Under the pieces are notes generated by a model. It saw nothing but the letters and a program-made list of their open reading frames with translations, was not told the DNA's origin and made no database searches. Made by a program: the position numbers and the translations under genes. Of a DNA stretch of 41,989 bases, positions 9,494-16,942 are shown piece after piece. Positions within the stretch are counted from its first letter, which is position 1, and every line of letters begins with the position of its first letter. This stretch comes from Gemmatimonadota bacterium (GTDB lineage: Bacteria > 4572-55 > J002): NCBI GenBank assembly GCA_003697105.1, contig RFFQ01000040.1, forward strand, positions 1-41,989, written 5' to 3'.

Positions 9494-9582
9494 ACGTTCT
9501 GACTCCTCCATGTTTTTGTGTGTTGGCGATTCAGCGAATAGGATATCCAGTGTAACGTAACTCCTTGCAAAAGGCAATAAAA

Positions 9583-10704
9583 ATGAATCCGATTGATGAA
9601 AGCTATTTGCGAATGACGTTTGAACTGGCACAGTGTGCCAAAGGTCAAACATCACCGAATCCGTTGGTGGGGTGTGTAATTGTGAAAGACAATCAAATTG
9701 TCGGGAAAGGGTTTCATGCCCAAGCCGGAAAGCCTCACGCGGAGATAGAAGCCTTGCACATTGCCGGTGAAGCGGCAAAAGGGGCAACGGTGTATATCAA
9801 TTTAGAGCCATGCTGTCATTTTGGGCGGACACCCCCTTGTACACAAGCCCTGATCCGGCATGGGGTAAAACGAGTGGTGGTCGCTATCGCCGATATTGAT
9901 GAACGGGTTGCTGGCAAAGGGATTGCCGCCCTCCGTGCCGCCGGAATTGAAGTAGAGCACGGATTTTTGCAAGAAGAAGCCCGGCAATTAAATGAGGTGT
10001 ATTTGAAACATAAATCCACGGGTCTGCCGTTTGTCTTATTGAAATTGGCGATGTCACTGGATGGAAAAATTGCCACCCGCACCGGACATTCCCAATGGAT
10101 TACCAGTGAGACCGCCCGCCGTCAAGCCCACCGCTACCGGCACGAATCCGATGCCATTTTAGTGGGGATTGGCACGGTGCTCGCCGATGACCCCATGCTC
10201 AATGTGCGGATGGTTGAAAAAAGCACACCACACCATCCCGTGCGGATTGTTCTGGATAGCCGCGCCCGGCTACCCCTGACCTCCCAGTTAGGGCAAACTG
10301 CCACGGACATCCGGACGATTGTGGCGGTAACATCTAATGCGAATCCCGCGCAGATTGAGTCCTTGCGGCAACACTCGCTGGAGGTGTGGGAGTTTCCGGC
10401 AACATCAACGGGACAGGTTGCCCTGGAACCCTTACTCCGACGAATGGTAACCGATCAGTTATGTAGTTTGATGATCGAAGGGGGGGCACAGGTGGCAACG
10501 GCGTTTTTACAAGCCGGTTTGGTGGATAAAGTCGCGGCGGTGATAGCACCTATCTTAATTGGCGGCGACGGGTTACCGGCGGTGCATTCCTTGGGCGTGG
10601 ATACCGTCGAACACGCTTTAAAACTGGTAAACACGCGGTTTGAACCACTCGGCACAGATCTATTAGTGGAAGGGTATCTGGAGACAAAAAACGTCTCCCC
10701 GTAG
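9583..10704 (+). CDS. ribD: Bifunctional riboflavin deaminase/reductase
   Basis: TSPNPLVG, HAE, LEPCCHFGRTPPC, SLDGKIA, GIGTVLADDP and IEGG. Confidence 0.96.
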   Translation: MNPIDESYLRMTFELAQCAKGQTSPNPLVGCVIVKDNQIVGKGFHAQAGKPHAEIEALHIAGEAAKGATVYINLEPCCHFGRTPPCTQALIRHGVKRVVVAIADIDERVAGKGIAALRAAGIEVEHGFLQEEARQLNEVYLKHKSTGLPFVLLKLAMSLDGKIATRTGHSQWITSETARRQAHRYRHESDAILVGIGTVLADDPMLNVRMVEKSTPHHPVRIVLDSRARLPLTSQLGQTATDIRTIVAVTSNANPAQIESLRQHSLEVWEFPATSTGQVALEPLLRRMVTDQLCSLMIEGGAQVATAFLQAGLVDKVAAVIAPILIGGDGLPAVHSLGVDTVEHALKLVNTRFEPLGTDLLVEGYLETKNVSP

Positions 10705-11494: not shown

Positions 11495-12856
11495 ATGGGA
11501 CGTGATGTTGTCAAACCCAAAGGGGCACGCGGTACGCGGGATTTCCTACCCGATCAGATGATCCGGCGTCAAATGGTTATCAATACGATCAAAACGGTTT
11601 TTGAAACATACGGTTATGAGCCGCTGGAAACACCCGCCATCGAAAATTTGGAAGTACTGACCGGAAAATACGGCGATGACGAAAAATTGATCTATAAGAT
11701 CATGCGGCGTGGCTTGGATGCCAATAATTTACCGCCACTCCATGAGATGGCAGATTTAGCTTTACGCTATGACCTAACCGTGCCACTTTGCCGGGTGGTG
11801 GCGATGTACCAACACCAATTACAATTGCCGTTCAAACGTTATCAGATCCAACCCGTTTGGCGAGCAGAACGCCCGCAAAAAGGGCGATACCGTGAATTTT
11901 ACCAATGCGATGCAGATGCGGTGGGCACGGCATCTATGTTGGCTGATGCCGAAACCTTGACCCTAATCCATGATGTGTTTCGGACGCTAGGCTTCAAGCA
12001 ATTCCGTATCCGGCTCAATAACCGTAAAATTTTGACCGGAATTGCAGAATATGCCGGCGTGGACGCTACCAAAGCGATGGATGTCTGCATTGCAATCGAT
12101 AAATTGGATAAAATCGGTATGGATGGTGTGATCGGGGAATTACAAAAACGCGGCATTGCTCCAACTGCCATTAATAAAATCATGCCTATTTTGGAAATTA
12201 ATGGCACTAATGACCAAATTTTAAACGATGTAGCCACCTTGTTGGAAAACACACCTACCGGCAGTCAAGGTGTCGCGGAAACACAGGAGCTTATCAACTA
12301 CCTGCAAGCGTTGGGTATCCCAGAAGCCAACTGCGGTATTGACCTTTACATGGCACGCGGTTTGACCTACTATACGGGTCCAATCTATGAAACCATTGTG
12401 GAGGAGCCAAATATCGGAAGTTTAGCCGGTGGGGGACGGTATGACAAACTGATCGGTATGTTTTTAGGACAGGACATCCCCGCGACCGGAATGGCACTCG
12501 GCATTGAGCGTATTATTGATGTGATGACAGAATTAGAGATGCTACCCCCAGCAAAAACTACGGTACAAGTGATTGTGCTCCCATTTAACGCGGAGGTACA
12601 ATTAGAGGCATTACACCTTATCCAAGAGTTACGAACGGCAGGTCTGAATAGCGAATATTACTATAACTTAAATGATAAAATGGGTAAAAAGTTTAAATAT
12701 GCGGGAAATAAAGGGATTCCGGTAGGGGTTGTGATTGGTCCCGACGAAATTCAGCAGGGAACGGTGGGAATTAAAAATTTACAGACCAAGCAACAAGAGA
12801 CCGTGTCCCGTACCAAAATGATCGCGGTTATCAAAAATATGCTGGATCGCGATTGA
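11495..12856 (+). CDS. hisS: Histidine--tRNA ligase
   Basis: RGTRDF, LRYDLTVP, RAERPQKGRYREFYQCD, RGLTYYTG, GGGRYD and GIERI. AAGGAG RBS. Confidence 0.97.
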   Translation: MGRDVVKPKGARGTRDFLPDQMIRRQMVINTIKTVFETYGYEPLETPAIENLEVLTGKYGDDEKLIYKIMRRGLDANNLPPLHEMADLALRYDLTVPLCRVVAMYQHQLQLPFKRYQIQPVWRAERPQKGRYREFYQCDADAVGTASMLADAETLTLIHDVFRTLGFKQFRIRLNNRKILTGIAEYAGVDATKAMDVCIAIDKLDKIGMDGVIGELQKRGIAPTAINKIMPILEINGTNDQILNDVATLLENTPTGSQGVAETQELINYLQALGIPEANCGIDLYMARGLTYYTGPIYETIVEEPNIGSLAGGGRYDKLIGMFLGQDIPATGMALGIERIIDVMTELEMLPPAKTTVQVIVLPFNAEVQLEALHLIQELRTAGLNSEYYYNLNDKMGKKFKYAGNKGIPVGVVIGPDEIQQGTVGIKNLQTKQQETVSRTKMIAVIKNMLDRD

Positions 12857-12858
12857 CC

Positions 12859-13521
12859 ATGCCTATCTTGATTGGTATTGGAGGGGGTTCTGGTGCGGGA
12901 AAAACCGTTCTCGCCCAAGAGATTCAACGCCAAATTAGCCCATCATACTGTGTGATTCTCCCGTTGGAATCGTATTACCGGAATTGGGACGATCTACCTG
13001 AGTTCAACGGTTGGAAAAATTTCGACCATCCCGATGCCTTTGATCAGGATACATTAATATACCATTTGCGGGCGTTGTCTATGAACGCTACCATTCAACA
13101 ACCCGTTTATGAGAATCACCGGCGTATTGGCTACCGAACCTTTTCGCCAGCCTATCTCACTTGTGTTGTGGGGTTGCATATATTAAATTTGGCGGAGTTT
13201 CGAGCCGTTTTGAATCTGAACATTTATGTAAACACACCGGACCCCATTCGATATAAACGCCGGTTGCAACGGGCACGGCAGGAATGGGGGCTTTCCACTG
13301 AGCAGGCACGCCTCCAATATGAACAGATGGTCTATCCAATGTACAAACAGTGGGTTGAACCCAGCCAAAAGTACGCGGACGTGATCGTCTCCGGTATAAC
13401 ACCGGTGGCGGAAACTGCCCGACACATTCTGAAACGGTTGCAAAAATGTGACGCCAAAATACCACATTTGCAAATAAAACACAACATTGGCGGGAAATCA
13501 TACCCAGAAAATATAAATTAA
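12859..13521 (+). CDS. udk: Uridine kinase-like protein (divergent active site)
   Basis: IGIGGGSGAGKT, NFDHPDAFD and WVEPSQKYADVIV. Several conserved residues are substituted (see findings). Confidence 0.75.
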   Translation: MPILIGIGGGSGAGKTVLAQEIQRQISPSYCVILPLESYYRNWDDLPEFNGWKNFDHPDAFDQDTLIYHLRALSMNATIQQPVYENHRRIGYRTFSPAYLTCVVGLHILNLAEFRAVLNLNIYVNTPDPIRYKRRLQRARQEWGLSTEQARLQYEQMVYPMYKQWVEPSQKYADVIVSGITPVAETARHILKRLQKCDAKIPHLQIKHNIGGKSYPENIN

Positions 13522-13559
13522 CCTACTGAAAAATAAAAACTTAACCAGTATAATTACTG

Positions 13560-13575
13560 TGGTATGAAGGTTGCT
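13560..13575 (+). promoter_or_regulatory. sigma54 (RpoN) -24/-12 promoter, candidate
   Basis: TGGTAT-GAAGG-TTGCT has exact GG-N10-GC spacing. It is preceded by an AT-rich IHF-like segment. Confidence 0.65.
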
Positions 13576-13585
13576 CATGTATAGA

Positions 13586-13749
13586 GTTACCTTTTCTCCT
13601 CCCTAAACTTAAGGTGAAGGCGCGATAGTTGATTCTGGTTTAAGTTACAGGTTTTCCTGCCTCCTTTTCCTGTAAACTTTAACCCCTGTTTTCCGTTTTC
13701 CCCCTACGGAAACACCTCGACACCAGAATTCGACTATCGCGTTTTTTTT
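13586..13749 (+). ncRNA. Candidate structured small RNA with three CU-rich anti-SD-like loops
   Basis: 5' hairpin TTACCTT/AAGGTGA with loop TTCTCCTCCCT. Long closing stem 13620-13639/13722-13742 enclosing two hairpins with loops TTTTCCTGCCTCCTTTT and TTTCCCCCT. Ends in T8. No ORF. Confidence 0.62.
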
Positions 13750-13783
13750 ATTTTATCTCATTATGTTATAAGGAGTTATGATT

Positions 13784-14197
13784 ATGGCATTTCTGAATAA
13801 AATCGATCATATCGGGATCGCGGTGCGAAGCATCGAGAACAGTTTGAAGCTATATGTAGATCAATTGAAGATGCCGTTGGTACACCGGGAGGATGTCCCC
13901 GAACGCGGGGTACGGGTGGCATTTACTCAAATCGGCGAAAGTACCATTGAATTATTGGAGCCAACACAACCGGAATCGACGATTGCAAAGTTCTTGGAAA
14001 AACGGGGGGAAGGTTTTCATCACATCTGTTATGCGGTTGATGATGTCAATGCAACCTTGAAAGCACTCGAAGCGGAAGGCGCCACATTGATCGACAAAGA
14101 AGCGCGTCCCGGTGCCGAGAACAAACTGGTGGCATTTGTTCACCCCAAATCGATGGGCGGAGTACTGGTCGAATTGGCGCAACCCATGCCCAAATAA
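13784..14197 (+). CDS. mce: Methylmalonyl-CoA epimerase (VOC family)
   Basis: KIDHIGIAV, IELLEP, KFLEKRGEGFHHI and FVHPKSMGGVLVEL. AAGGAG spacing favours the ATG at 13784. Confidence 0.92.
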   Translation: MAFLNKIDHIGIAVRSIENSLKLYVDQLKMPLVHREDVPERGVRVAFTQIGESTIELLEPTQPESTIAKFLEKRGEGFHHICYAVDDVNATLKALEAEGATLIDKEARPGAENKLVAFVHPKSMGGVLVELAQPMPK

Positions 14198-14199
14198 GA

Positions 14200-14829
14200 T
14201 TACGCCAACCATTGTGAGGCGACTTTAACCGCTCCGGAACGTAAAATCCGGGGCGGTTTTTTCGTTACATCAATCACGGTAGAAGGCATGGCTGAAGAGG
14301 ATTTTCCGGCATCCAAAATCAAATCAATTTGACCATCAAGTTGGTCAAGAACATCGTGGGCAGTTAGCGGAGGCGTTTCTCCAGAGAGATTGGCACTGGG
14401 CGCAGTCAAAGGGCAATTGCAAGCACGAAGTAATGCTAATGCCACCGGGTGGGGCGGAATGCGAATCCCAATGGAATCGCCCCCACCCCGCAATATCGGG
14501 GAAACCGCCGGTTTTGCCGGAAAAACTAGAGTTAATGCTCCGGGCCAATATTCTGCCATGAGCGGCGTTGCACCGGGAGGGATCTCCGTGACAAATTCAG
14601 CCAGAGCATCTGTACTGGGGAGTAAAATCAGGATTGGCTTATTTGCGGGGCGATTTTTAATCTCAAACACTCGCTGGATGGCACGGTCATTCTGGGCGTC
14701 CGCCGCCAAGCCATAAAGAGTTTCCGTTGGGAAGGCAATCACTCCCCCATCTTGGATAATTGTTGCTGCCTGCGCAATGATATTCGGGTCAGGGTATTGT
14801 GGATGAATGCTTAAAAGAGGCGTGCTCAT
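14200..14829 (-). CDS. tsaC: L-threonylcarbamoyladenylate synthase (TsaC/YrdC)
   Basis: AFPTETLYGL, KNRPANKP, WPGALT, APSANLSG, PSTVID and LRSG. Confidence 0.93.
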   Translation of the reverse strand: MSTPLLSIHPQYPDPNIIAQAATIIQDGGVIAFPTETLYGLAADAQNDRAIQRVFEIKNRPANKPILILLPSTDALAEFVTEIPPGATPLMAEYWPGALTLVFPAKPAVSPILRGGGDSIGIRIPPHPVALALLRACNCPLTAPSANLSGETPPLTAHDVLDQLDGQIDLILDAGKSSSAMPSTVIDVTKKPPRILRSGAVKVASQWLA

Positions 14830-15325: not shown

Positions 15326-15799
15326 TTACACAGTTAAGCGCTCCATCAAATTGACCATTTCCAAAGCGGTAAGTGCCGCATCCCAACCTTTATTACCGAC
15401 TTTTGTACCTGCCCGTTCAATCGCTTGTTCGATGGTATCTGTGGTAATTACCCCATAGGTGACCGGTATGTCGAATTGGAGAGCGGTTGTTGCAATACCT
15501 TTGGTGACTTCTGACGCGATAAAATCAAAATGGGGTGTTGCGCCTCGGATGACCGCTCCCACACAAATAATCGCATCATATTTACCGCTTTTTGCCATCT
15601 GTTTTGCCACCAGCGGGATTTCAAACGAACCGGGAACCCACACCCCAGTAATATCACTTTCCGCAACACCGTGCCGCAAAAGACAATCAATGGCCCCCTC
15701 CATTAATCTTTTGGTGATGAGTTCATTAAATCGCCCCATCACCAGACCAAATTTTTTGCCTTCACCAGAATATTGACCTTCGATTATATGAATTGCCAT
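15326..15799 (-). CDS. ribH: 6,7-dimethyl-8-ribityllumazine synthase
   Basis: [27 protein letters not shown] and [14 protein letters not shown]. Confidence 0.97.
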
Positions 15800-15811
15800 A
15801 AGAAACTCCTC

Positions 15812-16942
15812 CTATTCAAAAGGTACTGAACTTACGATTTCCAAACCATACGCATTTAAACCTACCCGCCGTTGTTGCGGGTGGTTTGTTAAGAGCCGGA
15901 TCGTGGAGAGTCCGAGGTCTGCCAGAATTTGCGCTCCAATGCCGTAATCCCGCATATCCATGTGCAATACGGATTTGAGTTCATACGGCTCGAAAGCATC
16001 AATTTTTTTAGCATAGTCCACCATTTTATTGACCAAATATTGTCCTCGTCCTTCCTGTGGAATGACAAACACCAAGACGGCATACTCTTCTTGCGCTAAT
16101 CGTTCCAGTGCCCGTACTGCTATATTTTGCCCATGTTCGGACATACCATCTAGCATAGCGAGCAGAGGCGACGAAGAGTGTACCCGAACGAGGACATCTT
16201 TTTTGCCCCGGACATCACCTTTCACAAATGCCAAATGATACTCATCTGTTAATGTCGTCCGGTACACATGCAGTGTGAAATCACCAAATCGAGTGGGGAA
16301 AGGTTTATAAAAGACCCGTTCGATCAGTTTATCTTTTTGATAGCGGTACGAGATTAAATCGCGGATGGTAATCATCTTTAATTGATGTTTTTCGGCAAAT
16401 TTTAAGAGCGCCGGAACGCGTGCCATGGTGCCATCATCATCCATAATTTCGCACAACACACCGGCCGGATAATGTCCGACGAGCCGAGCCAAATCAATTG
16501 CGGCTTCCGTATGCCCTGCACGCCGAAGTACACCCCCTTCAGCGGCTTGTAATGGAAAGATATGCCCCGGGCGCGCTAAATCTTCCGGTTTAGTCTGGGG
16601 GTCAACCAATGCTTGGATCGTGATGGCGCGGTCGTGGGCGGAAATGCCCGTGGTCGTACCTTTGATCGCATCCACGGAGACCGTGAAGGCCGTAGAACGT
16701 TGGGCAGTATTATTGGAGACCATCTGTTCCAATTCCAATTCTTTCAGGCGTTCCGCGGTCATCGAGACACAGATCAAGCCCCGGCCATGAGTTGCCATAA
16801 AATTGACTAATTGCGGGGTAATACATTGTGCCGAACAAATCAGGTCGCCCTCATTCTCCCGGTCCTCATCATCCGTGACAATAATTAATTTTCCGTCTCG
16901 AAAGTCCTCAATAGCCTCTTCAATCGTATTGAACCCAAACAT
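15812..16942 (-). CDS. ribB: 3,4-dihydroxy-2-butanone-4-phosphate synthase fused to a degenerate GTP cyclohydrolase II domain (RibBX-like)
   Basis: The DHBP domain is intact ([26 protein letters not shown]). The C-domain keeps RVHS, QEGRG and [10 protein letters not shown] but lacks the Zn-binding cysteines. Confidence 0.9.

Follow-up and report, generated by a model that had tools for sequence, protein, structure and literature searches.

A candidate small RNA with three C-rich loops and a predicted three-way junction, behind a sigma-54-type promoter site, between udk and mce of a Gemmatimonadota bacterium

What is the role of the strongly structured segment that separates the uridine kinase (udk) and methylmalonyl-CoA epimerase (mce) genes in a Gemmatimonadota bacterium (assembly GCA_003697105.1)? 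A first-pass annotation of the DNA letters had proposed that positions 13586-13749 form a sigma-54-dependent, trans-acting small RNA (sRNA) with three anti-Shine-Dalgarno-like loops. Positions refer to the window, the whole stretch of 41,989 nt of contig RFFQ01000040.1 that was analysed, unless a contig number is given. The host genome (G000) comprises 4.18 Mb in 199 contigs and is 96.85% complete. The sequencing runs that carry the element are labelled hot-springs metagenome, and no run of RNA is listed among them; two DNA runs have contigs with the identical sequence of the element, which a third run leaves uncovered.

The segment was described at first as free of open reading frames, and it contains no ORF of at least 20 amino acids on either strand; the sole ORF listed for 13530-13770 ends at 13578. 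The + strand of 13586-13749 has a predicted minimum free energy of -50.0 kcal/mol, compared with -25.9 +/- 3.1 kcal/mol for 200 dinucleotide shuffles (z -7.78; 0/200 as good), while the fold of the minus strand stands out less (z -4.78). In these models the functional strand is the + strand, as for the flanking genes, because the closing stem includes a U-G pair and the U run is on that strand. RNA folding reproduced the proposed 5' hairpin, three-way junction and terminal T8 (Table 1) with every coordinate correct, and the closing stem, estimated earlier at about 20 bp, has 22 pairs. It contains one bulge and one internal U-G pair, its final three pairs involve the U tract, and it encloses the hairpins at 13642-13679 and 13687-13714 to make the junction. 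Branched terminators are unusual, and the simple terminator scan used here admits loops of 3-8 nt only, so that the terminator of the element is missing from its list. The fold is kept at a modelled 65 C (energy -21.1) and, minus the 5' hairpin stem, at 75 C (energy -13.3); its persistence in the heat matters because of the hot-springs label of the runs.

Table 1. Positions of the element, its predicted parts, its putative promoters and the adjacent genes in the window.
Feature	Position	Strand	Basis and details
hisS	11495-12856	+	4-nt overlap with udk
udk (uridine kinase)	12853-13521	+	ORF call; last gene of hisS-udk
Sigma-70-like promoter CTGAAA-17-TATAAT	13526-13554	+	10/12 matches; predicted start near 13561
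Sigma-54-type -24/-12 element TGGTAT-N5-TTGCT	13560-13575	+	motif and genome-wide enrichment
Predicted 164-nt RNA	13586-13749	+	fold, no ORF, single copy; about 189 nt if begun at the sigma-70-like start
5' hairpin	13587-13617	+	7-bp stem 13587-13593/13611-13617; 17-nt loop 13594-13610 holding CUCCUCCC
Closing stem, 5' strand	13618-13639	+	pairs with 13722-13744
Junction hairpin 2	13642-13679	+	loop 13652-13668, UUUUCCUGCCUCCUUUU
Junction hairpin 3	13687-13714	+	loop 13697-13705, UUUCCCCCU
Closing stem, 3' strand, running into U8 (13742-13749)	13722-13749	+	intrinsic-terminator-like end
mce (methylmalonyl-CoA epimerase)	13770-14197	+	Shine-Dalgarno AAGGAG 13770-13775; ATG 13784

The three hairpin loops are UUCUCCUCCCUAAACUU, UUUUCCUGCCUCCUUUU and UUUCCCCCU, with unpaired probabilities of 0.98, 1.00 and 0.89, and their C-rich motifs are CUCCUCCC, CCUGCCUCC and UCCCCCU, respectively. 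They had been called pyrimidine tracts, and this description holds beyond chance by two measures: 39 of their 43 bases are pyrimidines (binomial 9e-5, given the 35% purines of the element as a whole), and three loops with C-rich motifs arose in none of 500 shuffles. When 1196 intergenic regions of at least 90 nt were scanned post hoc on both strands, the element alone had two or more hairpin loops with C-rich motifs ahead of a T6+ run, and that scan found no sibling RNA of the same design elsewhere in G000. The loops resemble the CCUCC end of 16S rRNA; the host's own 16S rRNA is missing from the G000 assembly. A mini-ORF at 13577-13606 (ATG 13577, TAA 13606; nine codons ending Pro-Pro-stop, with GAAGG before it) shares bases with the first C-rich loop, and only transcripts begun upstream of the sigma-54 start would include it. 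It was dropped as a leader peptide, as it lies upstream of that start and accounts for one loop only.

The sequence ahead of the predicted 5' end has the form of a sigma-54 promoter. TGGTAT occupies 13560-13565 and TTGCT 13571-13575, with the GC at 13573-13574, and position 13586 falls exactly 12 nt after its C, as first reported. The site matches TGGYAY-N5-TTGCW with GG and GC 10 nt apart. Its assignment to sigma-54 has been strengthened by the rest of the genome, in which rpoN is present together with 19 full-length Sigma54_activat matches and further partial or weaker ones. TGGYA-N6-TTGC has 92 matches on the two strands of G000, 20 of them intergenic, compared with 9/266 for controls of the wrong spacing (N5 4/129, N7 5/137; Fisher 3.7e-7), in a genome where intergenic DNA makes up 7.6% by crude gene calls. 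From the same controls about 4-5 of the 20 intergenic matches, a fifth to a quarter, are expected by chance. The textbook -24 word is TGGCA; TGGTAT at the element is typical for this organism because TGGTA is the form taken by 15 of the 20 intergenic sites. Judged by its sequence, the site at 13560-13575 probably (roughly three in four) binds the sigma-54 holoenzyme. Fourteen of the 20 intergenic sites point to a gene on the same strand, and nine of the 13 other than the element's lie 27-118 nt from a predicted start; that of the element is 204 nt from the next gene, mce, with the terminator in between.

No convincing activator-binding site was found upstream, where the repeat finder returned only short or imperfect inverted repeats in 13350-13600. 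By eye only, an imperfect TTGCAAA...TTTGCAA pair could be made out at about -148 to -110, the repeat finder giving no pair there, and no activator gene occurs among the neighbouring ORFs examined. The region also contains sigma-70-like sites, two compared with 2.6 +/- 1.4 in shuffles, which alone is not above chance. An RNA begun at the one listed in Table 1 would be about 25 nt longer; in folding, the extra 5' bases re-pair with the first hairpin and the C-rich tract is still exposed.

The genome-wide matches include several sites of separate interest. Two intergenic TGGTAT sites (C14:39651-39665 and C43:16901-16915 of G000) precede response-regulator genes. On the minus strand of C4:10262-10411 a sigma-54-like site, TGGTAACGAGGTTGC, faces a convergent gene at its 3' end and is followed by about 100 nt of non-coding DNA and by a strong hairpin that is accompanied by a T run; the arrangement may represent another short RNA, or a site that arose by chance beside a bidirectional terminator. 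Two contig ends (C88:104-118 and C172:50673-50687) have the same word, TGGTAGAGACGTTGC, close by, each time followed by a near-complement, and the resulting inverted repeat is probably a repeat element rather than a promoter.

The element is present in G000 as one copy, other matches being 14-23 nt long with E values of 0.6-7. The first-pass annotation had allowed for a dispersed repeat, and the single full copy rules against this and against a MITE-like remnant. The covariance search that it had recommended places the element in no Rfam family, whether sRNA, leader, riboswitch, Y RNA, 6C or RsaE. At gathering thresholds Rfam 15 finds only a tRNA in the whole window, and around the element, at E values up to 10, the matches are at chance level (C0719, 14.7 bits against a threshold of 50; suhB/mmgR, 12 bits against 41). 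The window also contains riboflavin genes at 9565-10704 and 15326-16942 (ribD on the + strand, ribH and ribBA on the - strand); despite these, no part of it scores above the Rfam threshold for an FMN riboswitch. The element is non-coding, single-copy and exceptionally structured.

The homologues that were to be looked for around udk and mce did not appear, and no relative of the element was found in any collection covered. BLAST found none in 40 other genomes, only two of which belong to the same class (G001 and G002), and a covariance model built from the element (R1) found none in these two genomes or in 26 fetched loci. A second match of this model in G000 (C76:41700-41772, E 1) falls within a coding gene and was rejected. 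The syntenic places beside mce and udk of G001 and G002, the DNA that follows hisS at the two closest HisS loci, and phage and plasmid collections also contained nothing like it, and a metagenome scan via Udk gave 91 pattern matches and no relatives. The lineage stands well apart, its nearest relatives sharing 31-56% identity in housekeeping proteins. Compared with G000, the Mce of G001 and G002 is 53% identical and the Udk 31-32%, and the gene order around them is not shared; a search of 5.8 billion proteins gave 44% identity for the nearest Udk, and the nearest HisS proteins, taking one genome per species, are 56% and 49% identical, followed mostly by those of Bacteroidota at 40-46%. As far as sequence comparison goes, the element is an orphan that rests on one sequence.

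A pattern search of three same-class genomes, for a sigma-54 promoter word with CCTCC within the next 10-60 nt, gave three matches in G001 and one in G002, compared with none for reversed-pattern controls in both. One of those in G001 (L122:1500-1700, equal to G001:C127:16368-16568) has a consensus TGGCAC-N5-TTGCA within a gap of 425 nt that precedes a gene on the same strand. About 165 nt after the promoter word are free of ORFs and fold with z -6.97, showing an unpaired CUUCCUCCUCCUUCU tract, a C6 hairpin loop and a terminator-like end made of a hairpin and a U-rich run. The G001 candidate, at L122:1527-1690, has no Rfam match and no detectable homology to the element in the window, and a search for its homologues in 20 genomes gave short chance matches only; two patterns found no analogue in G002. 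It may lend weak support to a theme common to both genomes, weak because the pattern that found it was derived from the features of the element under study.

If the loops act as they appear to, their targets should be common. The first-pass annotation had noted many GGAGG ribosome-binding sites, and these are indeed plentiful: (A)GGAGG precedes 533 of 3243 crudely called genes (16%) compared with 26 of 1669 internal controls (1.6%), and Shine-Dalgarno-like motifs in general 59% compared with 18% in the same sets. No Hfq or RRM_1 gene was found in the genome at its 96.85% completeness. Mean RNAduplex energies of loops 1, 2 and 3 over 3229 start regions and 1741 internal controls were -7.85 vs -7.02, -9.90 vs -9.52 and -6.82 vs -7.21, respectively. 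The extreme tail past the best control held 5/3229 start regions and 1/1741 controls (p 0.67), and 12-mer complements of loop 1 numbered 9 compared with about 6 estimated by chance. Energies near those of controls are to be expected because the seed is a generic anti-Shine-Dalgarno sequence, and this result is uninformative either way. The top RNAduplex matches, a kinase-like gene (C187:38845) and an ABC permease (C10:24948), are not proposed as targets.

From these data we infer a transcript, its two ends, an action in trans and a set of targets. The reading that we put forward, at a likelihood a little below even, is that the element is an independent and probably Hfq-independent sRNA which would mask Shine-Dalgarno sites and double as the hisS-udk terminator. 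Transcription would start at about 13586 from the sigma-54-type promoter and would need one of the roughly 19 enhancer-binding activators; the sigma-70-like promoter may add a start near 13561. It would stop at the U8 behind the 22-bp closing stem, leaving three permanently unpaired pyrimidine loops held on a scaffold whose modelled fold lasts up to 65-75 C. By pairing with mRNAs at their (A)GGAGG Shine-Dalgarno sites, the loops would prevent ribosomes from binding, with no need of Hfq, an activity in trans suggested by the anatomy of the RNA and by precedent. The same stem and U8 would also terminate hisS-udk, and read-through would supply mce.

The position of the element between two genes invites other explanations, in which it acts only in cis. 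The sigma-54-type or the sigma-70-like promoter might belong to mce and the 164-nt structure might be a 5' leader, with the terminator limiting flow into that gene until relieved by a protein or other factor, and with no function in trans. Mce is identified by TIGR03081 (150.2 bits against a cut-off of 114.95), and its gene is monocistronic with its own terminator at 14227-14258. Only 20 nt separate the U8 end (13749) from the mce Shine-Dalgarno site (13770) and the promoter scan found no + strand promoter between them, so that mce is probably fed by transcription passing through the element. A cis role would also suit the G001 analogue, which is likewise upstream of a same-strand gene, and propionate genes are known to be under sigma-54 control by PrpR. 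Such a leader has no antiterminator pairing and no match to a cis-regulatory family in Rfam, however. A riboswitch or attenuator was rejected, there being no exclusive antiterminator fold: forbidding the 3' strand costs 22 kcal/mol and leaves the 5' strand largely unpaired. The terminator is predicted to form by default, because the 5' strand is left with no stable pairing partner until the 3' strand of the closing stem has been transcribed. For pairing with the loops the mce start region is no better than mid-rank (1970, 2063 and 2635 of 3229), mce of G001 and G002 lacks such a leader, and the 204 nt from the promoter to mce exceed the distances at the nine sites described above. A leader would also leave the three pyrimidine loops unexplained, and we regard this explanation as unlikely, although it is the foremost of the rivals.

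A simpler explanation is that the element is a plain intrinsic terminator and 3' UTR of hisS-udk, perhaps with a stem for processing by RNase III, and that the promoter-like sites and loops have no regulatory meaning. The udk product belongs to the Pfam PRK family and matches NCBIfam uridine kinase models at E 1.8e-44, with scores under the curated cut-offs. The terminator scan shows no other terminator-like site between the udk stop (13521) and U8, and the element is on this account predicted to be the sole terminator and 3' UTR of hisS-udk, a role that our preferred reading shares. RNase III cuts helices of about 22 bp, the size of the closing stem; the sigma-70-like match is not above chance, and some of the intergenic sigma-54-like matches are expected by chance. 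Ordinary terminators here, on the other hand, are simple hairpins, that of mce having a 12-bp stem and an 8-nt loop, and the composition of the loops is improbable and, in the post-hoc scan, unique among the 1196 intergenic regions. A 3' UTR contacting a 5' UTR is known from icaR; this is unsupported here because the hisS and udk start regions show no special pairing with the loops (ranks 1178-2985 of 3229). A mere terminator is in our judgement decidedly improbable, more so than an mce leader.

The loops could instead be protein sites rather than pairing seeds, the element being a Y-like partner RNA of a Ro60/Rsr orthologue or another protein-binding RNA. G000 does encode a protein with TROVE and vWA_Ro60 domains (C147:2919-4526), and any partner RNA of it must be encoded elsewhere, because the gaps flanking rsr measure only 12 and 48 nt and Rfam finds no Y RNA, and no RNA but a tRNA, in C147:1-10000. 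The rsr gene follows a multi-PAS histidine kinase gene across the shorter gap and precedes an NfeD gene across the longer one. According to PMC4201824, Y RNAs combine a long terminal stem with a large internal loop, and in Salmonella the sigma-54 activator RtcR controls their operon. The same paper gives a size of 80-130 nt, below the 164 nt here, and places nearly all YrlA RNAs within 4 kb of rsr, whereas the element is on another contig. Read directly, the 5' strand of the stem (13618-13639) lacks the GNCGAAN0-1G motif; no Rfam Y RNA matches at E values up to 10 and no tRNA-like domain was seen. A Y-like RNA is accordingly far the least probable of these alternatives, to which we give very little credence.

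Returning to the masking sRNA, a wider proposal can be framed around it, which we offer as speculation that is more likely wrong than right by a considerable distance. An Hfq-less thermophilic lineage might use sigma-54-switched 'ribosome-tail mimics', in which several CCUCC tracts on heat-stable scaffolds damp mRNAs led by Shine-Dalgarno sites. The scaffold of the element would be the three-way junction, serving also as hisS-udk terminator and mce gate, and the G001 candidate would be a second, independently evolved case. If the sRNA is real, the element would give a very deep, uncultured hot-spring lineage its first candidate regulatory RNA, and would be a further independent origin of the design with several anti-Shine-Dalgarno loops, here under sigma-54 control and inside a branched terminator. 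It would widen the view of C-rich-loop sRNAs as a general chaperone-free solution in bacteria with strong Shine-Dalgarno usage, with no principle changed.

Several families of sRNA work with C-rich loops. RoxS/RsaE of Firmicutes uses C-rich-loop seeds on G-rich ribosome-binding sites and does not need Hfq. According to PMC6486639, 6C of Actinobacteria acts through C-rich loops without chaperones, and in PMC4615179 the anti-Shine-Dalgarno-loop principle was proposed for the cuckoo RNAs and for RNAIII of Firmicutes, the latter with UCCC loops. The element shares with 6C, RoxS/RsaE and RNAIII its predicted unpaired C-rich loops and, with no Hfq gene found in G000, probably the chaperone-free type; it differs from them in architecture and promoter type and has no sequence or model match to them at E values up to 10.

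The predicted -24/-12 promoter in front of the candidate sRNA gene is a feature shared with GlmY/GlmZ and Qrr. For the element no activator site or nearby activator gene was found, unlike these systems. To our knowledge, GlmY and Qrr are not anti-Shine-Dalgarno mimics. [quoted passage not shown] Both promoters of glmY start at the same base, whereas the two predicted starts of the element are about 25 nt apart.

The element also resembles the cuckoo/alpha-r14 RNAs of Alphaproteobacteria (NfeR1, CcsR/RSs0680), which likewise present an anti-Shine-Dalgarno-like C/U tract in several loops. The first-pass annotation had set the nested junction of the element apart from these RNAs, and rightly so: in PMC4615179 they consist of two to four adjacent hairpins with the identical CCUCCUCCC in every loop and no multiloop. 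The CUCCUCCC in loop 1 of the element has eight of the nine bases of this motif and none of the three loops has the full 9-mer; the three differ from one another, and two of them sit on a three-way junction inside the 22-bp terminator stem. The element also lacks an Rfam match and belongs to an unrelated lineage. In NfeR1 the three anti-Shine-Dalgarno loops act redundantly, occluding ribosome-binding sites, and the promoter has no sigma-54 signature (PMC10746234), unlike the site upstream of the element. By analogy with these systems, the element is a candidate orphan multi-seed C-rich-loop sRNA, which is a known kind of regulator, and its unusual part would be the branched terminator scaffold on which the loops are carried.
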